Assembly (NCBI GenBank): GCA_030523775.1
Contig: JAUNHW010000012.1
Location: forward strand, 6,715-70,714
Source of the DNA: Akkermansia sp.
GTDB taxonomy: Bacteria > Verrucomicrobiota > Verrucomicrobiia > Verrucomicrobiales > Akkermansiaceae
DNA length: 64,000 nucleotides
Direction of reading: 5' to 3'
Position numbers and translations under genes: made by a program. Of the stretch, positions 1,587 to 55,413 are shown in pieces. Under the pieces are notes generated by a model. The model was given only the letters and a program-made list of their open reading frames with translations. It ran no database searches and was not told where the DNA came from. Each line of letters begins with the position of its first letter. Position 1 is the stretch's first letter.

Positions 1587-4500
1587 TCACTTGCGGCGGC
1601 GCCTTGCCGCCAGGGCGGCAAGCGCAAGCAAGCTCAGCGTGCCCGTGGTGGGTTCCGGCACGTTGCTGAACTTCTGCAGGCCGAAGCCGTCAACCTCGCT
1701 GAACACGATGTTGAAGTCGCCCTGCAGCTCGTAGTCGCCATCGGCGGCGGTGCGGGAGAACACGCTGTCGTACCAGGCGTCCTCACCGTAATCACCGGTG
1801 TAGGAGAGCTCACGGCCTGCAGCGGCATCGATCAGCCAGAAGTAGTCGCCGACAGCCAGGTCGTCCAGCTTGCGGAGCGTGGTGCCGTCCAGCGCGATGT
1901 TCTGGCCCATGGTGAGCGTGCTGCCCACGTGCAGGGCCTGCTCCACGCCTTGGACGAGCAGTGCGGAGTCGTCGGCCATCACCAGGTTGGCGAGCAGGGT
2001 GCCGCCGCCGGCAGCCAGCTCTTCCGTGACGGTGATGGTGGCCTCGGTTTCCGGCGCGGAGAGGATCTCCACGGCGGAATCCGGGCCAACGGTGATGTTC
2101 GCCACCTCCACGGCATCTTCCATGCCGTTGAGCGTGAGCTTACCGCCCTGCACGTTGGTGATCTCTTCAACGGTCAGCCAGTTGGAGACGGTGACGTCCT
2201 CGCCGATGGTCTTGGTGATACCCGTTGCGGACACGACCATGCTGGTGTTGTCCAGGGAGTAGGCGTCATCATCTCCCTCGTTGTAGACGGCAACGCCGAT
2301 GCTATCAGAGGAGAACTTGACGCCGTCGAGCTCCAAGGATTCGCCGAAGTTTACTATGGATTCGGAAGCGATGCCGACATCCGAGGCATCCAGGCCCTCG
2401 CCGGTCACGGTGGCCATGCCGGTCACGGTGATTTCAATGCCGGAGCCGGCCTGGTCCACATCGAGCGTGCCGGACGCCACCTCGACTGTGGTGGTTTCGT
2501 GGCCGGAGTTGGCGATGTCGGAGATCTTCACCGTGCCGTCGTTCACGTAGAAGGTGGAGTAGTCGACATCTCCCTCGCGCACGATGATGCGGCCATCGCT
2601 CTTAAGGTCGTACGACTGGTCCTGCCAAGTGACGGAGCCGGTGGAGGTGCCGCCGTTGACCACCTGCACAAAGGCTTCACTCTCGCCGATGTAGTAGTTG
2701 TCGCCCTGCGTAATGTCACCGTCCAGGCCGTAGTGTGCGATACCGCCGCCCTGCTGGGAGAAGGCATCGCCGAGCGTGGCATAGTTGATGGTCACGTCAC
2801 CGTGGTTGACGACAGCCGCCAGCAGGTTGACATTGTCGAACTCGGCGGAGGCGTGCTCGTTCACGGTGATGGCGGAGGCGGTGACCTCGCCGTGGAACAC
2901 CGTGGTGAACTCATCCGTGCCGTTGCCGACAACCAGGTTGAGGGTGCCTGCGTTCAGCTCGATGTCCGCGTTCACTTCCGTGGCTTCGTCGTAGAACTTG
3001 AGGGTGCTTGTCTTGCCCGATCCGCTGGCAGTGTAGGAGCCGTTCCATTCGGAGACATCACCGGAGAAGATGTACGTCTGGTTGTTGGCGCCGTTGGCCA
3101 TCGTGTAGACGAAGTCGCCCTCGCCCTTCACGCCGCCCGCGAACTCAATGGTCTTGTTGGAAGAGCCGTTGTTGACCGTCAGGCCATCGCCGGAGAGTTT
3201 CACAGTAGCATTGACGAGCAGGCCGTCGTTGCTCAGCCAGCCGGTCACGCCGTCAAGCTCAACAGTGGAATCGGCATGTCCCAAACTCGCGAGATTCAGG
3301 TTTGTCGCATTGCCGTTGTTGGAGATCTTCACCGTGCCCATCCAGTCATCGGCGAGCGCAACACTGCCCAGGGTGGTGGCGCTGCCCAGGTCGTACGTGC
3401 CCTCGCCATCGAGGGTGAAGTAGCGAGCGCCGGTGGCGGCGGTCACGGTCTTGTCCCCCTGGATGTTGATGGTGCCGGCGCTGTAGGTGCCGATCAAGTC
3501 GGCGCTGATGTCCTGGTCAACCTCCAGCGTACCGTCTTCCTCCACCTCAATGGCGGAAAGGGCGCCGTGCGAACCTTCCATGTCCTTGGCGGTGGTGACC
3601 GTCTCACTTTCAGTGAAGATGTAGAAGGTGCTGTAGTTCTTGCCGTTCACGGCAGCCGTGCCGGTTGCCTCGTCCACCGTCACCACCTGGCCGTTCCACG
3701 TGAACGTGGCACCGGTAGTGGCAAGCGTGGCGCCCTCTTGGATGGTAACCACCAGGGCATCGCCGTCCATAACGGCAAAGCCGTTGCCCTCGTAATGGCC
3801 GCCTTCATAGGAGTATTCGCCGTCAACATAGACATCGCTGATGTCATACTTGCCGCTCATGTTGAGCGTGCCTGCCTGCAGGTCGATGCCGTAGAGGCCG
3901 ATCTTGACGGTGCCATCACCGGAGAGGGTGTAAGCCCCTGTGCCGGTCTTGGTGGCGCTTTCAAGGTTCACGGTGCCGGCGTTCACGGCAAAGCTGCCGG
4001 ACGTGAGGCCCAGCTCGCCGAGGTTCAGCGTACCCTCGCCGTTCTTGGTGTAGGAGGCGCCGTTGGTGATGCTGCCGGTAAGGCTCAGCTCCTTGCCTTC
4101 CGCCACATTCAGGGTCAGGTCGTGGCTGTTCATGTTCAGGCCCACGCCCGTGGAGGTGGTTTCCTGCGCGTCAATGGTAATGTTGGCGCTCACATTCATG
4201 GTGCCGGACACGTTGCCGCCCGCAAGGATGACGTTGGCTGCGGTGGAGCCGCCCTTTTGGGGATCGACCTCAAAGTTCACCTCGCCGCCCCGCACCTCGA
4301 TGGTGCCGGCGCTCACGGTGGTATTCTTCAGGGCAAAGAGACCATCACCCGTCTTCACCAGGGTCTTGCTGTTCAGGTTCAGGGCGGTGGGGTCATAGCC
4401 GCGCGCCAGGAGACGGAGGTCATGCCCGTTGTCCGCATGCACGGTGGAATCGGCGGTCAGGTCCAGGCCGGTTGTCTGCGAGGAGCCGTAGCCCAGGGCC

Positions 4501-6797
4501 GCACCGCTGTTGGTGAGCGTGCCGCCGGCCATCGTGTACTTGAAGTTGGCATCCGTGACACCGTTCAGGTCCAGCGTGCCGCCCTCTGCAATGGTGATGG
4601 TCTTGGTCTGGGAGGCGCCGTTGTTGTGCTCACCCAGGGCCCTCTGGTTGCCGATCTTGAGCGTGCCCTCGGAGATGGTCACATCACCCGTGAAGGCGGT
4701 GTTGGCGCCGGTGATGGTCAGCGTTTCCGCCCCGGCCTTCACCAGCGTTCCCGCGCCGGACACGCTCGTGAGCGTGGCGGCTGCCGTGGTGTCCAGCGTG
4801 CCGGAGGCGCCGGCCGCAAGCGTCAGGCCAATGGAGGCACCGTCCTGGTCCATGGTGATGGTGGAGGTGCCAGTCACGGCGATGGTATTGACGGTGTGCT
4901 CGCGTTCGCTCGCGTACTGGATGGCGTGTGCCAGGCTCTCCGTGCCGCTCTTCACGTAGAAGGTGCCGTAGTTGGTGGAACCCTCGGTGGTGTAGACTCC
5001 GTTCACGACATCCACGTTGGTGCCGCCCACGGTGAAGGTGGCGTTGTCCACATTGACGGTGGCGTCACCAGCCTTGGTGTACACGGTTGCGGAGCCGGCC
5101 GTATGCGCGAAGCCGTTGTCCGTGCTGCTCACTCCGCCCTCGTACGTGGTGGCCATGGTGCCGGTGTTGCCACCGATCTCATACTTGCCGCTGAGGGTAA
5201 GCGTGCCCGCGGTCACGGCGATGGTGTTGCTCAGCACATTGCCGTTGCCGGTCACGGTGGTGGAGCCGCCGGTGATGCTCAGGGAGCCGTCGGTGCCGAT
5301 GATGAGGGCGTGCAGCTCTCCGGTGCCGGAGATATCAACCGTGCCGGCCTGGATGTTCAGGCCCTCGGCCTTGGTCTCGCCCGTGAAGTGGAGGGTGCCT
5401 TCACCCTGCTTCACCACCACGGAGGAGGCGCTGTGGTCGGAGCCGTTGATGGTCAGCTTACCGACGGTGAGCTCGCCCCCGTTCGCCACGTCGATGGTCA
5501 CGCCGTTGCGGCGGACGTCCAGCACGTCGATGTTGTTCTGCACGCCGGAGGCGGTGATATTGCAGCCGAAGGTGTTGAAGCCCGCGGAGCCGCCCTGCTT
5601 GGTGGAGGTGATGGTGGAGTAGCCCTGCATGTTGATGTCCGTCACCATGGTGGCGCTGTTGCCGGTGGACTGGTTGAGTTCCAGGGTGGCCAGCTTGCCC
5701 TCCTCGCCCTTCATGGTGAGGCTCGCCACGCACTGGTTCTTGCTGCCCCAGCCGAAGGCGTCGTGCTCGCCCACGATGCGCATGATGCCGCCGGCGTTGA
5801 TGGTGAGCGCGCCGGTGATGAAGCCGTTGACACCGCTGTGGGTGGTCTCCAGCACGCCCTTGTCATTGATGACAATGTTCACGTTCATGTTGCCGGAGGT
5901 GACGCGGTAGGTGGCGTCCTGCACGGTGACCGTGGCGCCCGCGTGGTCCACCTGGAACACGCCTGTGCCGGTCACGCCCTCCAGCGTAACGGCGTCCGTC
6001 TTCACATAGAACTTGGTGGTGTCCGTCACGTCACCGGCGGTGAAGTAGTAGTTGCCGCCCTCTTCTCCCGTGACAATGTCACCGGTGGTGGTGGTGGCCT
6101 GGAAGCCGGTGCCGGCCGTGGCGCCCTTGATGATGTAGTAGGAGGAGCCGGAGGTCTTCTTGAAGCCCTGCTGGTTGGTCACATCCGTCCAGGTAGCGGA
6201 GCCTTCCTGGCGCAGCGCGTAGTTGTTGGCGTTGGATGTATCGAACGAGTAGGTGCCGTTCAGGGTGACGGTGCCCGCATTGTTGACGATGGCGCCCGTC
6301 AGGCCGAAGGAGGATGCGCCGTCCACGCCCAGCGTGAGCACGCCGTAGTTCTGCACGCCGGTGAGCGTGCCGGTCACGGCCTTCACCGTGGCGGTGGTGT
6401 TCTCCGGAGCCTTGCCGGCCGCGTACGGCTGCGTGCTCAGCAGGATGCTGCCCGTGCCGTTGCCCGCCGTGATATCGTCAATGGTCAGCGCGGCGAACGT
6501 GCGGTCCTGGCCCCAGAAGTTGCCGCCGGAGATGCGCACTGTGGCGCCGTCCTTCACGGTCACCTCGGAAATCCCGGCGGTCACGGGGTTGCTGCCCTCG
6601 GCGGTGATGTTCACCTGGCCGTGCTCGTCATCCGTCAGGACAGAGCCGGTCTTGCCGCTGTCCGTGTAGAACCAGTCGCCGCCGGTGTTGCCGCCGTTCC
6701 AGGAGACAGTGCCGTACGTCTGCGGCAGGGTGAAGCCCACCGCGGAGATGGCGGCGATAAGGGCCGCCCTGAGTTTGGTGTTGATACGTAATTTCAT
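1587..6797 (-). CDS. Large PEP-CTERM surface protein with autotransporter-passenger-like beta-strand repeats (about 1736 aa)
   Basis: Long signal peptide MKLRINTKLRAALIAA; G/T/N-rich repeats such as LVKAGAETLTITGANT and LVKTGDGLF; C-terminal VPEPTTGTLSLLALAALAARRRRK. Confidence 0.9.
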   Translation of the reverse strand: MKLRINTKLRAALIAAISAVGFTLPQTYGTVSWNGGNTGGDWFYTDSGKTGSVLTDDEHGQVNITAEGSNPVTAGISEVTVKDGATVRISGGNFWGQDRTFAALTIDDITAGNGTGSILLSTQPYAAGKAPENTTATVKAVTGTLTGVQNYGVLTLGVDGASSFGLTGAIVNNAGTVTLNGTYSFDTSNANNYALRQEGSATWTDVTNQQGFKKTSGSSYYIIKGATAGTGFQATTTTGDIVTGEEGGNYYFTAGDVTDTTKFYVKTDAVTLEGVTGTGVFQVDHAGATVTVQDATYRVTSGNMNVNIVINDKGVLETTHSGVNGFITGALTINAGGIMRIVGEHDAFGWGSKNQCVASLTMKGEEGKLATLELNQSTGNSATMVTDINMQGYSTITSTKQGGSAGFNTFGCNITASGVQNNIDVLDVRRNGVTIDVANGGELTVGKLTINGSDHSASSVVVKQGEGTLHFTGETKAEGLNIQAGTVDISGTGELHALIIGTDGSLSITGGSTTVTGNGNVLSNTIAVTAGTLTLSGKYEIGGNTGTMATTYEGGVSSTDNGFAHTAGSATVYTKAGDATVNVDNATFTVGGTNVDVVNGVYTTEGSTNYGTFYVKSGTESLAHAIQYASEREHTVNTIAVTGTSTITMDQDGASIGLTLAAGASGTLDTTAAATLTSVSGAGTLVKAGAETLTITGANTAFTGDVTISEGTLKIGNQRALGEHNNGASQTKTITIAEGGTLDLNGVTDANFKYTMAGGTLTNSGAALGYGSSQTTGLDLTADSTVHADNGHDLRLLARGYDPTALNLNSKTLVKTGDGLFALKNTTVSAGTIEVRGGEVNFEVDPQKGGSTAANVILAGGNVSGTMNVSANITIDAQETTSTGVGLNMNSHDLTLNVAEGKELSLTGSITNGASYTKNGEGTLNLGELGLTSGSFAVNAGTVNLESATKTGTGAYTLSGDGTVKIGLYGIDLQAGTLNMSGKYDISDVYVDGEYSYEGGHYEGNGFAVMDGDALVVTIQEGATLATTGATFTWNGQVVTVDEATGTAAVNGKNYSTFYIFTESETVTTAKDMEGSHGALSAIEVEEDGTLEVDQDISADLIGTYSAGTINIQGDKTVTAATGARYFTLDGEGTYDLGSATTLGSVALADDWMGTVKISNNGNATNLNLASLGHADSTVELDGVTGWLSNDGLLVNATVKLSGDGLTVNNGSSNKTIEFAGGVKGEGDFVYTMANGANNQTYIFSGDVSEWNGSYTASGSGKTSTLKFYDEATEVNADIELNAGTLNLVVGNGTDEFTTVFHGEVTASAITVNEHASAEFDNVNLLAAVVNHGDVTINYATLGDAFSQQGGGIAHYGLDGDITQGDNYYIGESEAFVQVVNGGTSTGSVTWQDQSYDLKSDGRIIVREGDVDYSTFYVNDGTVKISDIANSGHETTTVEVASGTLDVDQAGSGIEITVTGMATVTGEGLDASDVGIASESIVNFGESLELDGVKFSSDSIGVAVYNEGDDDAYSLDNTSMVVSATGITKTIGEDVTVSNWLTVEEITNVQGGKLTLNGMEDAVEVANITVGPDSAVEILSAPETEATITVTEELAAGGGTLLANLVMADDSALLVQGVEQALHVGSTLTMGQNIALDGTTLRKLDDLAVGDYFWLIDAAAGRELSYTGDYGEDAWYDSVFSRTAADGDYELQGDFNIVFSEVDGFGLQKFSNVPEPTTGTLSLLALAALAARRRRK

Positions 6798-48101: not shown

Positions 48102-50792
48102 CTACAGGCCCAGCTCCTCCATGGCCTTCTCTTCCGCCTCCTGCTGCAGGGCATCCGTGTCCACGCCCTCGTACACGCGGTCATCTATGGAGTTGCCCAT
48201 GATGAAGCTCCCTGCCATCATGGGCACGGCGACATCCACGTTCGTGGAGAAATAGCCGCCGCCCAGCTTTTCCCAAGCCAGGCGGGCCACCTCCGGAAGC
48301 AGCTTTTTCTCCCCGGCGGCCAGCCCGGCGAATTCCTTGCCCTTGGCATTCTTGATGCGGTCCAGGTAGGAGCTCGCCACGGCTGCCACCTTCTGAGATT
48401 CCTCCACCAGGGGCTTCTCCTGCAGCTCGTACTCGTAGCAGATTTGCGCCACGCGCTGTTCCGCGTCATCAATGGCGGCATTCCACTGCTCGCGGGGCAT
48501 GGCCTTGATTTGCGGCACCACCTGGTCCGTGTATGCATCTACTTCCTTCCTGCACGCCTTGTACAGGGCGCTGCTCTGCTTTTCAATCTCTGCGCGGCGC
48601 GCCACCAGGGATTCCAGCTTCTTTTCATCCACCACCCGGTGATACAGGCTCTCCACCGCAGCATCACGCTCTTTCTCCTTCTGCGCCCGCACCTCCTTCA
48701 TCTCCCTGCGCAGCGTGTCGCGCGCGCCGTCCTCATCCGGGCTGGCCACGTGCGCCAGGTTTCTGTACGGCTCGATTTCCTCCCTGATGCGCTTCTCAAT
48801 GCCACCGAGCAAATCCCGCTCGTCCTCCGTGACAAATGTGAACTCGGACGACTTCCCGCAGTTGTCGATGATATAGCGGAGGGGATACTCCACCTCCGAG
48901 TGGAAGCGCTCCCGGAAATCGCTCATCTTCTTGCGGTACTCGCGCTCGCACGCCAGGATTTTGCCATCCGTGTCCGACTCTATCTTGGAGACGTCGTCCA
49001 TAGGTGCGGCCTTGGCCTTGGCGATGCCCTCCGCGGCGATGCGGTCCATGGCTTTCAATCCCTCCTCCGGAATGGCCGCATACTCCTTCTTCATCTGCTC
49101 CGCCTTCTGCATGAGCTCCACCATGCCGCTCTGCGCGTGCACCTTTTGGTACAGGGCCTCGGTCATGCGCTCCTTGTCGATTTCACTTTGCCGCTCCTGC
49201 TGCTTGCGTTGGAGATTGCGCTGGCGCCGCTGCTCCTCTGCATGGGCCTCCTTGGTTTCACGGAGCACGCCTCTCAGCGCGCGCTCTTCCTCGTTTTTCA
49301 GCTGGGAGAAATTGTCGGTGGAGTTCAGGCTGTAGAAACTGTAGTTTTCACATTGCCCCACAGCCTTGGAATGCACGCGCGAGGAAACGGCGTGCATGAG
49401 CGCCAGCTTTTCCGCCGTGGAGAGCCCCGGCCAACCCCGGCCGCTTTCCATGGATTCCAGGGCGGCCCGGAAGGGCGTGACGACCTCTCGCTCGTATTGC
49501 TTGTCCAGCTCCTTGAGCTTTTCCTGGCAGGCGGCTGCCAAGCTTTCGAACTCTCTGTCAGCCGGGCTTGAATCCTCAGCCAGCGCCTGATTGCCCCGGC
49601 AGCGCTCCCTGTGCTTGCGGCAATCATCACTGAACTGGCTGGCGAGCTTCGCCCCGTCCGCCTCGAACTGCCTGTTTTTCTCCAGCAGCTTGTCTATCCC
49701 GTAATACTCCCAGGCGCGCTCCGTGAGCGCATCCAGATTCACCTCTCCACCGGCTGTTTCCACCGCGGGCGTTTCCCCGTCATCCCCGCGCGGTGCGGTT
49801 TTCGGCCCCGCCACGCACCAGCCCAGCACGGCGGCGGCCAGCGCGCCGCCCCACAGCAGGAAACGGCGCCGCCGCTTTTGGAGGAACCTGCGCGGTTGGC
49901 GCCTGCCATCCAGCACGGCCAGCCATTCCGCCGCGTTTTGACAGCGTTCCGCGGCGCGCAGCTCCAGGTTGCACATAATACCCGCCGCCAGGTGCGGCGC
50001 GGCCTGCACGCGTTCCGGCTGCAGCTTCTCCAGCGGCACCAGGCTGTCATCCACCATGCGGCGCAGGGTTGTCTCCGGTGCGCAGTTTGAAAAGACCTCG
50101 TACCAGGTGCAGGCCAGGGCGTAGAAATCCGTCCACGGGCCTATTTCCCCCTTGCCGGAGAGTTGCTCCGGCGCGGCGTACGCGGCGGAGAGCGCGCCCT
50201 GCGTGAGCGTGTGCGTGAGGCGGGAAATGTTCACCGCGGAGCCGAAATCCACCAGCACGGGCCGCCCGCTCTCGTCGAACATGATGTTCTCCGGCTTGAT
50301 ATCGCGGTGGATGATACCCTGCGCGTGCATGTGCGCGAGCGCATCCAGCAGCTGGCGCAGCCAATCCTCCACCTGCCCCGCGGGCAGCGGCGCATCCGCA
50401 GCCTCCGCAGTGTCCAGCCGCGCGCGCAGCGTGTCGCCCTCCAGCCAGTGCATCACGCAGAACAGGCTGCCGTGCGCGGCGAACACATCATGCACCTGCA
50501 CGATGTTCGGGTGGTTCAATTTGGCCAGCAGGCGCCCCTCCTTCTGGAGGTCCGCCATGGCCATTATGTACGCATCCTCCAGCTCCGGGCGGGCGGGCAG
50601 GATATGCCCGCTGTCGGCGTCTCTCACGCAGATTTCCTGCGGAAAGCACTCTTTGATGGCCACGTTCCGCTCCAGGGATTTATCCCAGCCCACATAAGTG
50701 ATGCCGAAGCCCCCCTGGCCGCGCGCAGCCAGGATTTTGTACCTGTCGTTGCCGAGGACGGCCCCCGGCGGCAATGCGCTGACCAGTTGCAT
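48102..50792 (-). CDS. Membrane-anchored Hanks-type Ser/Thr kinase with a long helical C-terminal domain
   Basis: GQGGFGITY, VAIKE, HRDIKPEN, DFG, YAAPEQ, DFYAL; basic stretch plus TM FLLWGGALAAAVLGWCVAG. Confidence 0.92.
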   Translation of the reverse strand: MQLVSALPPGAVLGNDRYKILAARGQGGFGITYVGWDKSLERNVAIKECFPQEICVRDADSGHILPARPELEDAYIMAMADLQKEGRLLAKLNHPNIVQVHDVFAAHGSLFCVMHWLEGDTLRARLDTAEAADAPLPAGQVEDWLRQLLDALAHMHAQGIIHRDIKPENIMFDESGRPVLVDFGSAVNISRLTHTLTQGALSAAYAAPEQLSGKGEIGPWTDFYALACTWYEVFSNCAPETTLRRMVDDSLVPLEKLQPERVQAAPHLAAGIMCNLELRAAERCQNAAEWLAVLDGRRQPRRFLQKRRRRFLLWGGALAAAVLGWCVAGPKTAPRGDDGETPAVETAGGEVNLDALTERAWEYYGIDKLLEKNRQFEADGAKLASQFSDDCRKHRERCRGNQALAEDSSPADREFESLAAACQEKLKELDKQYEREVVTPFRAALESMESGRGWPGLSTAEKLALMHAVSSRVHSKAVGQCENYSFYSLNSTDNFSQLKNEEERALRGVLRETKEAHAEEQRRQRNLQRKQQERQSEIDKERMTEALYQKVHAQSGMVELMQKAEQMKKEYAAIPEEGLKAMDRIAAEGIAKAKAAPMDDVSKIESDTDGKILACEREYRKKMSDFRERFHSEVEYPLRYIIDNCGKSSEFTFVTEDERDLLGGIEKRIREEIEPYRNLAHVASPDEDGARDTLRREMKEVRAQKEKERDAAVESLYHRVVDEKKLESLVARRAEIEKQSSALYKACRKEVDAYTDQVVPQIKAMPREQWNAAIDDAEQRVAQICYEYELQEKPLVEESQKVAAVASSYLDRIKNAKGKEFAGLAAGEKKLLPEVARLAWEKLGGGYFSTNVDVAVPMMAGSFIMGNSIDDRVYEGVDTDALQQEAEEKAMEELGL

Positions 50793-50823
50793 GGCCCCAC
50801 CTTTCAAAATGGCGTCACCCGCC

Positions 50824-51189
50824 CTACTCCGCGGGCTTGTCTTCGCTCGCCCCCAGGCGCGGCACCTCGTCCGCCAGGAACTCCGCCAGCGTCTTGCCGC
50901 AGCGGAACGCCTTTTGCTCCAGCGCCTTGCGGGTGGAGGAATCCAGGCTTAGCGTCACCAGTGTCTCCTCCTGCACCTTCACCCGGCTGGGCAGGGAGAG
51001 GGGGAGCTGCTTGATGAGCTCGCGAATGATGTGCTCCTTCGCCGCAGGAATGGGCTTGCGCGCCATCCAGTTGCGAACCGTCGCTTCCGTGACATAGCAC
51101 TTATCCGCCAGCCATGCGTAGTTCATGCCGTTGGCTTTCAGCCAAAGCTTGATGTTGACCTTCAGCTCGTCTTGGTTTGGTGCTTCCAC
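50824..51189 (-). CDS. Putative DNA-binding protein: N-terminal XRE-like HTH plus C-terminal RHH-like segment
   Basis: IKLWLKANGMNYAWLADKCYVTEATVRNWM; VTLSLDSSTRKALEQKAFRCGKTLAEFL. Confidence 0.75.
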   Translation of the reverse strand: MEAPNQDELKVNIKLWLKANGMNYAWLADKCYVTEATVRNWMARKPIPAAKEHIIRELIKQLPLSLPSRVKVQEETLVTLSLDSSTRKALEQKAFRCGKTLAEFLADEVPRLGASEDKPAE

Positions 51190-51196
51190 GCTCAAC

Positions 51197-51225
51197 AGTG
51201 TAGCAATTCTGCCATCATTTTGCAA
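51197..51225 (-). promoter_or_regulatory. Leaderless promoter of the HTH-kinase unit
   Basis: TTGCAA-17-TACACT, 7 nt before GTG 51189. Confidence 0.7.
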
Positions 51226-51275
51226 GAAATTTTACTGGTTTTCACCCATTTTATTTCTTTGATGGCGAAAAAAGG

Positions 51276-51304
51276 TTGACAATGTATCCAAAAACAGGTA
51301 ATTT
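51276..51304 (+). promoter_or_regulatory. Divergent promoter of the Zn-ribbon/Sel1 unit
   Basis: TTGACA-17-TAATTT. Confidence 0.6.
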
Positions 51305-51328
51305 TTGAAGCGTAAAAGCTACTTTGTA

Positions 51329-51835
51329 ATGCCAAACGTATCATTCACCTGCCCCTGCTGCGGCCGCCACCAGCTCATGCGCATTGAGCAGGCCATCCAC
51401 CGCTGCATCCTGCACTTTGCGGCAGACGACAAGGGCGGCATCTCTGCCCAGCCGCTGGACCGCGCGGACGAGCTGCACGGAGAAGTGCTGGGATACCGCT
51501 GCCAGCACTGCCGCTACCCCGACAACCGCAACGCCGACGACGGACCGGATTTCCTGTGGAAAACGCTGGATGACGTGCAGGCAGAGGGCGCCCTGGAGCT
51601 CAGCGACCAGCCGCCGCCGGAGCCGCGGCACTGCATGGTGTGCCACCCGGACGGCCGCCTGGAGCCCCTGGTGGTGGAATCAAAACGCCACGGAAAACTC
51701 ACCCAAACCCAGCGCCGCGCCATCCTGGCCGCCCGCAAGGCCCCCCAGGGCTGCATCCTGCTCTGCGAGCAGGACAAGGGCATCAAGAGCTTCTCCCCCC
51801 AAGACTGGCCCGCCGCGGAACACATGCGGGTGTAA
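51329..51835 (+). CDS. Hypothetical Cys-rich protein, putative zinc ribbon
   Basis: CPCC near the N-terminus, CQHC, CMVC. Confidence 0.7.
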   Translation: MPNVSFTCPCCGRHQLMRIEQAIHRCILHFAADDKGGISAQPLDRADELHGEVLGYRCQHCRYPDNRNADDGPDFLWKTLDDVQAEGALELSDQPPPEPRHCMVCHPDGRLEPLVVESKRHGKLTQTQRRAILAARKAPQGCILLCEQDKGIKSFSPQDWPAAEHMRV

Positions 51836-51855
51836 CCTCAAACCATGAACCCCAC

Positions 51856-54042
51856 ATGAAAATCCTCCCCATCCTCATCTCCTCCGTCATGGCTCTCAGC
51901 AGTGTCGCGTACGCAGACAAGGCCGTTGCAAACCTCGTCAAGCGCGCCCAGCAGCATGACGTGCCCGCCATGCGCACCCTGGGCATCCGCATGTACAAGG
52001 GAGGCTCTCCCGGCATCCCCACCGACCGCAAGGTGGCCCTCACCTGGCTCAACATGGCGGCCGACCAGAAGGATGAGGTGGCCCTCGTCTTCCTGGGCGA
52101 CATTTATGCCAAGGGATTCCACACTGCCAAGAATGAGCGCAAAGCTGCCAAATTCTACGCGGAGGCCGCCCAACTGGGCAACGACAAGGCTGTGGAGGCC
52201 ATGAACAAGCTGCCCGTCAAATACGCCCTTGAATGGCATGAGAGAAACGCCCAAAAGAAGGACTACGACAGCGCCATTCGCTTGGCTGAATACTACGTGG
52301 ACAAGGGAGATGGGGACGAAGCCCGCAAGAACTTCAAGATTGCCATCCAGGCCAACAGGGACAAGGCCGTGAAGCGCATGGCCAAGAAAGACATGGACAA
52401 GGCGGAAATCTTCTGGCGCGTTCTGGCAGACGACTTCAAGGATGGGGATGCCGCCATGCGCCTGGCAGACGCATACGGTACGGCAGACGGCGCAGCTTCC
52501 AATCCATCGGAAGCCGTCAAGTGGTTGCGCAAAGCTGCAGAGCGCAACCATGCCGAGGCTCAGTTCAGGCTCGGTCAATTATATCTGGCGGGAACAGGTG
52601 TGGACATGAACAGGCTAGAGGCCGCAAAATGGTTCCGCTTGGCCGCCAATCAAGGCCATGAGAATGCAAAAATGGCCCTTGCCAGTTGCTCTGTGACACC
52701 TGAAGTCGCGAAACCGACCGTCCCCGGGGGAAACCATGTTGAACATTTAAGGCCGACAAAAAAACTTGGAGAGGCGGCAGAGGCGCTTCGCATGGCATGG
52801 CGCTACAGGCAGGGTGGAGGAGTGGGCGACGGGCCCAAAGTCATTGAATCGTTCCGCAAGGCCGCCGAGCTGGGCCACCCCCAGGCACAGTACGCACTTG
52901 CATTGAGCCACATGTTCGGTTGGTGCGTGGCAAAAGACAAGCAAGAGGCCGTCAAATGGCTTCGCGAGGCTGCGGATCGCGGATATCTCTTGGCTCCATA
53001 CAAACTTGGCTGTTGCTACTATCTCGGAGAGGGAGTTCCCATGGACAGACAGGAGGCTGAAAGGTGGTTCCGCAAAGCCGCCGAACGGAACGATTTCGAT
53101 GCCCTGGTGTATTTTGAGGCCCATCGTGTAATAACAGACGAAAAGGACAGGGAGACAGATGCCGCCATGTGGTTCGCCACATCCGCGGCGGAGAGTGAAA
53201 GCAACTATCAATTGGTAAGGCAGGCAGAATCCGGAGATGCAAAGGCACAGTTCCTGCTCGGTGGCCGATATTGGAAAGGCGGTGATGTGGGTTTGGACAA
53301 GAGAGAGGCCGCCGGATGGTGGAGCTTGGCAGCCGAACAGGGGAATGCAGATGCCCAATGCTCACTGGCGTTGTATTACTGGGGGAACAATGGCACGGGG
53401 GGAAACCTGCCCGAAGCCGTTTATTGGTTTGGCAAGTCTGCCGAGCAAGGGCATGACATTGCTCAACATTTTCTTGGCCAATGCTACTGGATGGGCAAAG
53501 GCGTGACCATGGACAAGCAGGAGGCTGCCAAATGGTGGCGCAAGGCCGCAGAACAGGGAAACGCCCATTCTCAATTGAGCCTGGGTTTATGTTACCTCAC
53601 CGGACAAGGCGTGACCATGGACAAGCAGGAGGTGTACAAATGGTGGCGGAAGTCCGCAGAACAAGGAAATGCGGATGCCCAATGCGGGATAGGATGCTGT
53701 TTCCATGACGGCGAAGGTGTGCCGAAAGACTATGCAGAGGCCGTTAAGTGGTGGCGCAAGGCCGCAGAACAGGGGCACGCTCAAGCCCAGCGCAATTTGG
53801 CGGAATGCTATTATTGGGGAGACGGTGTGGACCTGGATGAACAAGAAGCAGCCAAATGGTGGAGTAAAGCTGCACAAAACGGAGACGCGAAGGCCCAATT
53901 TTGCCTTGGCAGCTGTTATAAAGCAGGGAAAGGCGTGCGCTCAGACGATCAAGAGGCTGTCAAATGGTGGCGCAAATCGGCTAGCCAAGGCTACGATGAT
54001 GCCATTGATATCCTCAACAAGTTGGGTATCCCCATGGAATAG
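51856..54042 (+). CDS. Secreted Sel1-like repeat protein
   Basis: Signal peptide; many 36-aa AQxxLGxxYxxGxGVxxDxxEAxKWxRKAAEQG units. Confidence 0.93.
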   Translation: MKILPILISSVMALSSVAYADKAVANLVKRAQQHDVPAMRTLGIRMYKGGSPGIPTDRKVALTWLNMAADQKDEVALVFLGDIYAKGFHTAKNERKAAKFYAEAAQLGNDKAVEAMNKLPVKYALEWHERNAQKKDYDSAIRLAEYYVDKGDGDEARKNFKIAIQANRDKAVKRMAKKDMDKAEIFWRVLADDFKDGDAAMRLADAYGTADGAASNPSEAVKWLRKAAERNHAEAQFRLGQLYLAGTGVDMNRLEAAKWFRLAANQGHENAKMALASCSVTPEVAKPTVPGGNHVEHLRPTKKLGEAAEALRMAWRYRQGGGVGDGPKVIESFRKAAELGHPQAQYALALSHMFGWCVAKDKQEAVKWLREAADRGYLLAPYKLGCCYYLGEGVPMDRQEAERWFRKAAERNDFDALVYFEAHRVITDEKDRETDAAMWFATSAAESESNYQLVRQAESGDAKAQFLLGGRYWKGGDVGLDKREAAGWWSLAAEQGNADAQCSLALYYWGNNGTGGNLPEAVYWFGKSAEQGHDIAQHFLGQCYWMGKGVTMDKQEAAKWWRKAAEQGNAHSQLSLGLCYLTGQGVTMDKQEVYKWWRKSAEQGNADAQCGIGCCFHDGEGVPKDYAEAVKWWRKAAEQGHAQAQRNLAECYYWGDGVDLDEQEAAKWWSKAAQNGDAKAQFCLGSCYKAGKGVRSDDQEAVKWWRKSASQGYDDAIDILNKLGIPME

Positions 54043-54081
54043 CATCCCACATGGCATAGGGCATTTTACTTGAAAGAAACC

Positions 54082-54258
54082 ATGACAAATCTTATACAAG
54101 ACTATTGGGCCATGTCGCCGCTGGCGGCGGTGGGGCTGGTGTTGCTGATATGCTGCCATTTGGGCAGGTGGAAAGGCGGCCTGAAGGTTGCCGGCAACGT
54201 TGTGGGCTGGGCGCTGGTGCTTATCGGTATCGGCAGTTTCCTGGGTTCGCTGGTGTGA
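54082..54258 (+). CDS. Small two-TM membrane protein (58 aa)
   Basis: Two hydrophobic segments separated by GRWKGGLK. Confidence 0.6.
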   Translation: MTNLIQDYWAMSPLAAVGLVLLICCHLGRWKGGLKVAGNVVGWALVLIGIGSFLGSLV

Positions 54259-54307
54259 GATAGAAGTTGACAGGGAAACACTCTTGGGGTTCAATGGAGA
54301 CTTGAAC

Positions 54308-54736
54308 ATGAAAGCGATTGCATCCTTGACATTGGCGGCCGCGCTGTGCGGCGGGGCGTGGGCGCAGCAGGGGAGCGCGTACACCACGCCGGGGGGAACC
54401 ACGCATTACACGGGACCGAACGGCTACCACGGCTCCTCCTACACCACACCGGGCGGCACCACACACTACCAGGACAACCGCGGCACGCGCGGCAGCTCCT
54501 ACACCTCGCCGGGCGGCTCCTCACATTAGACGGACAACAAGGGCTCGCTCGGCTCCTCGTACACCACGCCGGGCGGTACCACGCACTATACGGACAACAA
54601 GGGGCGCAGCGTCACCTCGTACACCACGCCCGGCGGCACCACCCACTACCGCGACAACCAGGGCCGCACGGGCACCTCGTACACCACGCCCGGCGGCACC
54701 ACGCATTACAGCGGGAACTTTTTCGACAAGAAGTAA
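54308..54736 (+). pseudogene. Secreted 20-aa-repeat protein interrupted by an in-frame TAG at 54527-54529
   Basis: Signal peptide then six SYTTPGGTTHY units; the frame continues past TAG to TAA 54734-54736; upstream TTGACA-17-TTCAAT. Confidence 0.8.
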
Positions 54737-54748
54737 GTAGCCTGCGGG

Positions 54749-55129
54749 TTATGGCAGGCGCTTTTCCTCCTCCGCCTGTTGGGGCGGGGTGCAGTTGCGC
54801 ATGGGGCGCTCCTGCGGGGCTTCGTCATTCGGCAAATTGTCTGCGCGGCGGTGCGCGGCGGATGCGATGAGGGCCACGGCGATGCCGAGCACGCCTATGT
54901 CGTCCAGCCAGCCGACAATGGGCATGAGATCCGGCAGGAAATCCACGGGCCACACGGCGTAGAGGATGGCGAGCACGGCAATGATGATGTTGCGCGGGGT
55001 GAGGAGATTCCCCTTCATGTGCTGCGTGCCCGCGCCCGCACGCTGCCCTGCGGGCTTGCCGCGGAACAGGCGCGCCAGCAGCTCGGGAATCGCCAGCAGG
55101 CATCCTGCCTTCTCGGGTGTTGCGCTCAT
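54749..55129 (-). CDS. YkvA/DUF1232-family membrane protein
   Basis: YAVWPVDFLPDLMPIVGWLDD. Confidence 0.85.
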   Translation of the reverse strand: MSATPEKAGCLLAIPELLARLFRGKPAGQRAGAGTQHMKGNLLTPRNIIIAVLAILYAVWPVDFLPDLMPIVGWLDDIGVLGIAVALIASAAHRRADNLPNDEAPQERPMRNCTPPQQAEEEKRLP

Positions 55130-55307
55130 GGGTTCAGTGTATACACCCCCTGCCCCGCATGGCAACACCAAACCGCGGCTGCTGCGTCATGGTGCCGTGA
55201 AACGCACCCTGCAAGCCAGTGAAAAAAGCCTCGTGTAGTCTTGGAATTCGCGCCAGGAGGATAATTGTCCTATAATTTGTTGGGTTTCAACGCACAGTAA
55301 ACACTCC

Positions 55308-55396
55308 CTGCCATTTTTATGTAGGAGATTCAACCGTATTCTGCCACTTTTATGTAGGAGATTGGGGCACATTCTGCCATTTTTCTGTAGGAGATT
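55308..55396. repeat. Three 23-bp direct repeats with a 33-bp period
   Basis: CTGCCATTTTTATGTAGGAGATT at 55308, 55341 and 55374 (1 mismatch each in copies 2 and 3). Confidence 0.9.
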
Positions 55397-55413
55397 TGAG
55401 CGCGAAGCGACTC

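Follow-up and report, generated by a model that had tools for sequence, protein, structure and literature searches.

Between pheS and gcvP, a 64,000-nucleotide stretch of Akkermansia sp. DNA (assembly GCA_030523775.1, contig JAUNHW010000012.1, positions 6,715 to 70,714; hereafter the window) carries a block of genes that raises the question of whether we are looking at one signaling system or at several layers sharing one place. An earlier note on this DNA had proposed a self-contained module of two divergent units: leftward, a helix-turn-helix (HTH)- or ribbon-helix-helix (RHH)-like gene and an intact Hanks-type kinase gene with a transmembrane (TM) helix and a large ectodomain; rightward, genes for a CxxC protein, a secreted Sel1 protein, a 58-residue protein with two TM helices and a secreted protein of 20-residue repeats. 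All genes and elements on its list were recovered by open reading frame (ORF) listing, family searches and repeat finding, and the back-to-back promoters of the two units are conserved in a consensus of 51 loci. As a self-contained module, the six genes did not withstand comparison with relatives. The block is built in layers, a constant regulator-kinase pair, a Zn-ribbon gene (the CxxC protein of the note) and a variable string of cargo genes, and is not one fixed six-gene system. The trio of regulator, kinase and Zn-ribbon gene is an undescribed, genus-specific variant of a theme in which a receptor Ser/Thr kinase is encoded beside a regulator, here coupled to a hypervariable cargo operon. 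Feature coordinates are collected in Table 1.

A search of prokaryotic genomes, one for each species, with a family profile of the regulator gave 96 loci. The best 80 of these, together with the window, form the comparison set of 81 loci, which we analyzed by tblastn and all-ORF clustering. The 80 loci come from uncultured Akkermansia of animal guts (metagenome-assembled genomes), except for one record labelled Bacteroidaceae, which is probably mis-binned. Two further metagenome contigs, L139 and L140, served as close relatives of the window, which itself lies on contig C16 of the source genome (2.33 Mb, 63.4% GC). In 69 of the 81 loci the kinase gene is directly downstream of the regulator gene, and in 55 the Zn-ribbon gene lies divergently upstream of it; besides these two, no gene family occurs in more than 15 loci. 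For 13 relatives, the counterparts of the genes flanking the trio are scattered over many contigs of the source genome, which shows that the trio stays together despite rearrangement. The co-occurrence for which the earlier note had proposed a synteny search holds for regulator, kinase and Zn-ribbon gene, which keep company in dozens of Akkermansia species while their flanks are shuffled; the Sel1, two-TM-helix (2-TM) and repeat genes are not fixed. Because the loci lacking a Zn-ribbon gene have no common replacement for it, we take regulator plus kinase as the invariant unit and the Zn-ribbon gene as a clade-level addition.

The regulator-kinase family is confined to Akkermansia. Of the 154 Akkermansia species in our census, 125 have a member of the regulator family, and about 100 an ortholog-grade match; orthologs are present in the complete genomes G006, G043 and G085, whereas several complete genomes of 2.7–3.1 Mb have distant family members alone. 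The position beside pheST is kept in the subclade of the window. We reject an insertion between pheS and gcvP that is specific to the source genome, as L140 has the same flanks and the pheST side is also found in loci L029 and L030.

A second, paralogous regulator-kinase pair exists in the source genome (G000:C5:19504-20810; L120:2490-4072), between aspS and a gene for a 375-residue tyrosine recombinase. The two regulators are 41% identical over their full length, and the paralogous kinase, with 371 residues and a TM helix near its C-terminus, has almost no ectodomain. By coordinate comparison, the paralogous regulator gene is directly upstream of the paralogous kinase gene in at least nine other genomes, so that the adjacency of regulator and kinase has been kept in two gene lineages. 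Pairs equivalent to this second one are common to many Akkermansia genomes.

Judged by its sequence, the kinase is a Hanks-type (eukaryotic-like) Ser/Thr protein kinase. It matches the Pfam family Pkinase (PF00069) over residues 29–244 with 126.6 bits against a cutoff of 31.7 (E=1.5e-36), and K52, H167-R168-D169, K171, N174, D187-F188-G189 and P213-E214 are invariant in 61 kinase orthologs. Its single TM helix spans residues 316–334 and is preceded, on the side of the kinase domain, by the positively charged RRQPRRFLQKRRRR, which places the kinase domain in the cytoplasm and the C-terminus outside. About 565 residues, rich in E, A, R and K, follow the helix. This ectodomain gave no match in Pfam and no sequence match in the PDB, and no Pfam domain was found in the corresponding part of any of the 61 orthologs; it occurs solely fused to this kinase (39 proteins), and the majority of orthologs carry a shorter, unrelated tail of about 200 residues. 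Compared with the L029 kinase, identity is 82% in the kinase domain and 69% in the ectodomain, where it drops to 24% for the most distant of six close relatives. The periplasmic domain therefore diverges faster than the kinase domain. The protein is not a PASTA kinase: the PknB/Stk1 model (NF033483) reached 146 bits against a cutoff of 450, the match was to the kinase domain alone, and no PASTA domain was matched.

The regulator gene starts at the GTG at position 51189 and encodes 121 residues, since the TTG at 51225, with which the longest ORF begins, is the −35 box of the gene's own promoter; the public gene call agrees with this start. An ORF-based annotation would over-extend the gene by 12 codons. 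Its stop codon lies 16–31 nt upstream of the kinase start. The AF2/AlphaFold model of the regulator has a mean pLDDT of 80, rising above 90 for residues 21–70, and Foldseek matched the N-terminal domain to HipB, SinR, Aca1 and CapH (probability 0.96–1.0, root-mean-square deviation 1.8–2.5 Å), the XRE, HipB and SinR-like matches having a probability of 0.99–1.0 and a TM-score of 0.6–0.7. From this model, the N-terminus is assigned to the XRE (Cro/C1-type) HTH domains. The regulator passes no Pfam HTH family, and searches of Pfam, NCBIfam, PADLOC and PHROGs with its sequence gave weak generic HTH matches alone; with the family profile, 3bs3 was matched in the PDB (E=0.002). The match in PHROGs was to phrog_4779 (E=3.9e-5). 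In the monomer model the C-terminal tail consists of an extended segment (84–95) and two helices (96–108 and 113–129), for which we found no Pfam match and no PDB sequence match. This arrangement is compatible with a ribbon-helix-helix fold of the CopG/Arc/MetJ kind, which the tail may adopt. The family comprises 331 proteins, none functionally named and none with a Pfam domain. At some loci, two regulator-family genes lie within 2.5 kb of each other (L087:1252-1599 and 3740-4114; L064:610-987 and 2807-3127), which suggests a local duplication of the regulator.

We aligned 54 intergenic sequences between the regulator and the Zn-ribbon gene and derived a consensus from 51 loci. The promoter of the regulator-kinase operon (P_HTH) reads CTTGCaAA, 17 nt, a TG-extended TAtatT and, 7–8 nt further on, a conserved GTG; the TG extension of the −10 box is present in most orthologs. 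In the window the GTG is only 7 nt past the −10 box, and the regulator mRNA is therefore probably leaderless. The opposite promoter (P_ZnR) is of the sigma-70 type, about 50 bp from P_HTH, and its −35 box is kept in the consensus. A generic promoter scan detected neither of the two. Further to the right we found no convincing terminator between the Zn-ribbon gene and position 54740, where a hairpin probably marks the end of the rightward operon. Scans for tRNAs and Rfam families found none in the block or nearby.

Both the control region and the relatives of the regulator could suggest that the block is what remains of a temperate phage or mobile element, namely a decayed lysogeny switch with its cargo as morons. 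A leaderless repressor gene and back-to-back promoters are reminiscent of cI/cro. In the phage collection searched, the regulator matched solely the regulators of the Akkermansia phages Moulinsart (WAK79094.1) and Chambord (WAK78975.1), which are 32–37% identical over the HTH and a following PIPxAK motif, are annotated as regulators or repressors from HHpred alone, and in one case lie near an integrase gene; in addition, the paralogous pair on contig C5 adjoins the recombinase gene mentioned above, and the downstream content is variable. Yet the phage genes have neither a kinase nor a Zn-ribbon gene beside them, and the similarity of their C-terminal tails to that of our regulator is weak. No integrase or tRNA adjoins the block, no homolog of the regulator was found in plasmids, the Zn-ribbon protein has no phage match, and the trio genes have the GC content native to the genome. 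With the pair present in about two thirds of the species, its catalytic residues invariant in all aligned kinase orthologs and its position beside pheST maintained in the subclade, we consider a phage or mobile-element remnant very improbable.

The Zn-ribbon protein has four cysteines (C16, C19, C66 and C69 in ORF numbering) that are invariant in 50 sequences. It is predicted to be cytoplasmic and β-rich (model pLDDT 83). A fold search with the model in the PDB and BFVD returned no match, hence no viral one either, and a sequence search of the PDB was also empty. The family is confined to Akkermansia and forms 48 clusters among 1.84 billion representative proteins. When we searched Pfam, NCBIfam, PADLOC and PHROGs with the Zn-ribbon, 2-TM and repeat proteins, the sole match was a sub-threshold Zn-finger in the Zn-ribbon protein (E=0.0098).

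What follows the Zn-ribbon gene is as variable as the trio is stable. In 49 of 52 loci the next gene shares its strand, and some 31 different families are represented at this position. The gene string of the seven closest species ends with the 2-TM and repeat genes, which are found in 7–8 of the 154 species and always on the contig of the regulator. In the window, the Zn-ribbon, Sel1, 2-TM and repeat genes point the same way and are separated by 20–49 nt. The Sel1 protein is a clear member of its family (PF08238, 13 repeats, 322.4 bits against a cutoff of 30.7, E=3e-99), and no full-length ortholog of its 728 residues was found in 60 other species. In L140, whose kinase is 89% identical, the whole stretch from pheS to gcvP is collinear with the window except that positions 51849–54085 are lacking, so that nothing separates the Zn-ribbon gene from the 2-TM gene. 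These 2,237 bp, which the window has and L140 has not, consist of the Sel1 gene with short flanks and are bounded by two copies of AAACCATGA (51840–51848 and 54077–54085); the left copy appears to be a remnant duplicated from the right one, which holds the start codon of the 2-TM gene. The Sel1 gene is thus a recent, lineage-specific acquisition and part of the cargo, not of the core. The earlier note had described parts of the block as more AT-rich than the flanks, which applies to the Sel1 gene (56.6% GC), the 2-TM gene (58.2%) and the intergenic parts (34–52%) and does not apply to the trio genes (61–67%).

The same slot is empty in L140 and taken up in other close relatives by GTPase-type or vWA/kinase/phosphoesterase cassettes of 3.7–10 kb. 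It holds a dynamin-like GTPase gene in genome G002; genes for DUF445, a dynamin-like GTPase, a DO-GTPase2-like protein and two unknown proteins in L029; a dynamin-like GTPase, a DUF697-like protein and others in L030 and L033; and two vWA proteins, a kinase-FHA protein, a calcineurin-like phosphoesterase and a dynamin-like GTPase in L031 and L032. In L139, whose DNA is 98% identical to the window, the Sel1 gene is present and the repeat gene is about four units shorter; a gene for a dynamin-like GTPase with the P-loop GKST, absent from the source genome, follows the repeat gene (L139:1-1782). Dynamin-like or DO-GTPase-like genes lie within 9 kb of the regulator in 29 of the 81 loci, and five of the six families concerned have no member in the source genome. 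Further cargo in Akkermansia loci includes GYF_2 fused to DUF805, PrsW or Sel1, as well as DUF1232, DUF4230, GNAT, LRAT, C39-like peptidase and GrpE-like proteins.

The presence of a secreted Sel1 protein beside a membrane kinase is what had led to the idea of a single sensing system. ExoR is a periplasmic Sel1 protein that inhibits the sensor kinase ExoS (ExoS/ChvI), and all six genes could by analogy be one obligate envelope-sensing system in which the Sel1 protein, joined perhaps by the 2-TM protein and the repeat protein, binds the ectodomain of the kinase and regulates it. Consistent with this, the closely spaced rightward genes are followed by a single terminator-like hairpin, the Sel1 and repeat proteins have signal peptides, and Sel1-repeat genes recur in the string behind the Zn-ribbon gene in about 10 loci. 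Sel1-fused kinases also exist in the genus: another Akkermansia species carries a tandem array of six Hanks kinase genes (L119; G017:C16:1-16000), three of which encode proteins of 931–1110 residues with C-terminal Sel1 repeats. To this extent a link between Sel1 proteins and kinases is plausible. The equation with ExoR failed, however, with 96.9 bits for the ExoR model (NF045484) against a cutoff of 450, and here a Hanks kinase takes the place of the histidine kinase partner. Sel1 repeats are absent from all 61 regulator-linked kinases. Moreover, the Sel1 gene is dispensable, as L140 does without it and the six closest species have unrelated cassettes in its place; its composition is atypical, and the repeat gene is interrupted by a nonsense codon. 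An obligate six-gene system is accordingly an explanation to which we give little credence.

The second idea that the kinase had invited is a role in phage defense. The pair could be an abortive-infection unit, composed of a repressor- or antitoxin-like HTH protein and an effector kinase like Stk2 or PD-T4-6, or the trio could sense attack and switch on interchangeable defense cargo. In PADLOC, the mad6 and PD-T4-6 models match the kinase with E-values of 1e-45 to 1e-47, and the regulator resembles HipB, Aca-type HTH proteins and regulators of Akkermansia phages. These PADLOC matches span residues 14–305 alone, that is, they cover a generic kinase domain, and the curated NCBIfam models scored far below their cutoffs (MAD6 115.7 against 460, PglW 52.8 against 990). 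As PD-T4-6 is a single-gene system, similarity in the kinase domain cannot by itself decide membership, and overall we see a defense role as neither supported nor refuted. No partner genes of MADS or BREX were seen in the surveyed block and its flanks. A TM helix followed by a large periplasmic domain is, furthermore, the architecture of a receptor and not that of a typical toxin.

The cargo bears on the same question. GTPase-centric (DO-GTPase/GAP1) conflict systems have been predicted by Kaur, Burroughs, Iyer and Aravind (2020, PMC7159879). Similarly, the trio in relatives adjoins genes for dynamin-like and DO-GTPase-like proteins, vWA, kinase-FHA and GYF proteins, calcineurin-like phosphoesterases and GrpE-like proteins, and PrsW is also among the cargo; gene flux at the level of strains and the AT-richness of the cargo would fit a defense locus as well. 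In contrast to the predicted systems, no GAP1 domain was found in the cargo, the DO-GTPase2 matches of the relatives stayed below the cutoff (24.1 and 20.5 bits against 27), and the window has no GTPase gene. Its cargo contains no recognizable effector, and PADLOC gave a single Sel1-PtuA match there, without a stretch. Taken together, we think an anti-phage or conflict system unlikely, though clearly less so than a phage remnant. As an observation in its own right, the vWA/kinase-FHA/phosphoesterase cassette, which directly follows the Zn-ribbon gene (L031:4569-9363, L032:4628-9361), resembles predicted vWA/kinase/phosphatase conflict systems.

Gene order, promoters, domain content, the topology signal of the kinase and the turnover of the cargo are what the sequences show; as to how the locus works, we lean slightly towards a reading in which the receptor kinase and the regulator control the divergent, variable cargo operon. 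The periplasmic domain of the kinase would sense an envelope or extracellular cue, upon which the kinase would phosphorylate or otherwise control the co-translated regulator; the Zn-ribbon protein may be a further target. For its part, the regulator would bind the divergent promoter region of about 100 bp and set its own expression together with that of the Zn-ribbon/cargo operon; both phosphotransfer and binding are steps that we purely infer. In the source genome, the output would be the exported or membrane-bound Sel1, 2-TM and repeat proteins, the last apparently inactivated by its nonsense codon.

Several points weigh against control of the cargo by kinase and regulator. The kinase gene is not adjacent to the regulator gene in 12 of the 81 loci, some of them at contig ends and four with the kinase on the other side, and the Zn-ribbon gene is missing in 26. 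Many of the loci are phylogenetically related, so that fewer independent events lie behind our counts than the numbers suggest. A search between the promoters for a conserved palindromic operator yielded no clear candidate, conservation there being limited to the promoter boxes and a weak TGC/GGC periodicity, and the assignment of the regulator tail to the RHH fold rests on a monomer model with a coil and two helices.

A bolder version of control by kinase and regulator, which we regard as rather doubtful, is that the trio is a dedicated sensor and switch: the kinase might read envelope damage or phage attack and, via its leaderless, repressor-like partner, turn on the exchangeable membrane-acting or conflict cassette in the slot, be it dynamin-like GTPases, DO-GTPase-like proteins, a vWA/kinase/phosphoesterase set or Sel1 proteins. 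If true, this major genus of the gut would have a kinase-gated island of its own for defense or stress, in which the control head is fixed and the cargo can be swapped.

Among characterized systems, close parallels are receptor Hanks kinases encoded beside their cognate transcription factor, for example PknH-EmbR of Mycobacterium tuberculosis. Both cases combine a membrane Ser/Thr kinase that has an extracytoplasmic sensor domain with a neighboring DNA-binding regulator, and the presumed logic is that of a kinase controlling the regulator and, through it, genes close by. The regulator here is, however, a small XRE-HTH protein with an RHH-like tail; it has no FHA domain and is not of the SARP/FHA type, it is encoded first in the operon, and its mRNA is probably leaderless. 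Also unlike in PknH-EmbR, two thirds of the loci have a Zn-ribbon gene running divergently from the pair, and regulator, Zn-ribbon protein and ectodomain belong to no Pfam family. The order of an XRE-type HTH gene directly upstream of a Ser/Thr kinase gene recalls HipB-HipA, and HipB is among the best fold matches of the regulator N-terminus; yet HipA is soluble and has a different kinase fold, whereas the kinase here is a PF00069 protein with a TM helix and a long periplasmic domain. No HipA family was among its matches at E≤0.01, and the pair is not a HipBA toxin-antitoxin system. A literature search found no paper on Ser/Thr kinases of Akkermansia and nothing relevant on Akkermansia kinases and Sel1.

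Table 1. Genes and sequence elements of the block (positions in the window)
Feature	Position	Strand	Remarks
Hanks-type kinase gene, 901 residues	48102–50807	−	start TTG 50807 or ATG 50792
Regulator gene, 121 residues	50824–51189	−	GTG start; longest ORF 50824–51225
P_HTH, candidate promoter of the regulator-kinase operon	51197–51225	−	TTGCAA 51225–51220, 17 nt, TACACT 51202–51197
P_ZnR, candidate promoter of the Zn-ribbon/cargo operon	51276–51304	+	TTGACA 51276–51281, 17 nt, TAATTT 51299–51304
Zn-ribbon gene, 168 residues	51329–51835	+	conserved start ATG 51329
9-bp direct repeat AAACCATGA, left copy	51840–51848	+	flanks the Sel1 insert
Sel1-repeat gene, 728 residues	51856–54042	+	signal peptide, 13 Sel1 repeats
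9-bp direct repeat AAACCATGA, right copy	54077–54085	+	overlaps the start codon of the 2-TM gene
2-TM gene, 58 residues	54082–54258	+	two TM helices
20-residue-repeat gene	54308–54736	+	signal peptide, six units, in-frame TAG 54527–54529
Terminator-like hairpin	54740–54759	+	directly 3' of the stop of the repeat gene
DUF1232 membrane protein gene	54749–55129	−	convergent; ORF reaches 55171
33-bp repeat array	55308–55396	+	2.7 copies; unit of a 23-bp core and a 10-nt spacer

Three features at the right end of the block deserve comment. In the repeat gene (TRF period 60, 5.6 copies), the in-frame TAG stands in the third repeat unit at a place where the other five units have TAC or TAT (Tyr). As the gene is intact, with no stop, in the genomes of seven other species and in L140, the TAG has arisen recently by nonsense mutation, is polymorphic or reflects an error of the assembly. 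The convergent gene between the repeat gene and the 33-bp array encodes a protein of the DUF1232 family (YkvA-like, PF06803; 40.7 bits against a cutoff of 23, E=1.9e-10) with two hydrophobic segments; in many other species the DUF1232 gene comes directly after the Zn-ribbon gene and on the same strand. This gene, the in-frame TAG and the shorter true starts of the regulator and Zn-ribbon genes had been overlooked by the earlier note.

The 33-bp array, which the note had seen as the end of the block, is a private triplication and not the boundary of a system. L140 carries a single unit of the repeat (in reverse complement, at about 5605–5632), and the 23-bp core has no copy beyond the three of the array in the source genome or the relatives searched. 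With three copies here alone and one unit in L140, the repeats are neither iterons nor a CRISPR-like array.

In annotating Akkermansia genomes, one should avoid treating the Sel1, 2-TM and repeat genes as constant components of a system. Signal sensing is poorly understood in this genus, a major one in the gut; its regulator and Zn-ribbon protein represent orphan families that accompany a receptor kinase in roughly two thirds of the species. That a Hanks kinase would gate a variable cargo operon is a directly testable idea. Independently of it, the trio marks a spot at which even strains with 98% identity differ in gene content, which makes it a practical locus in which to look for strain-specific envelope or defense functions.

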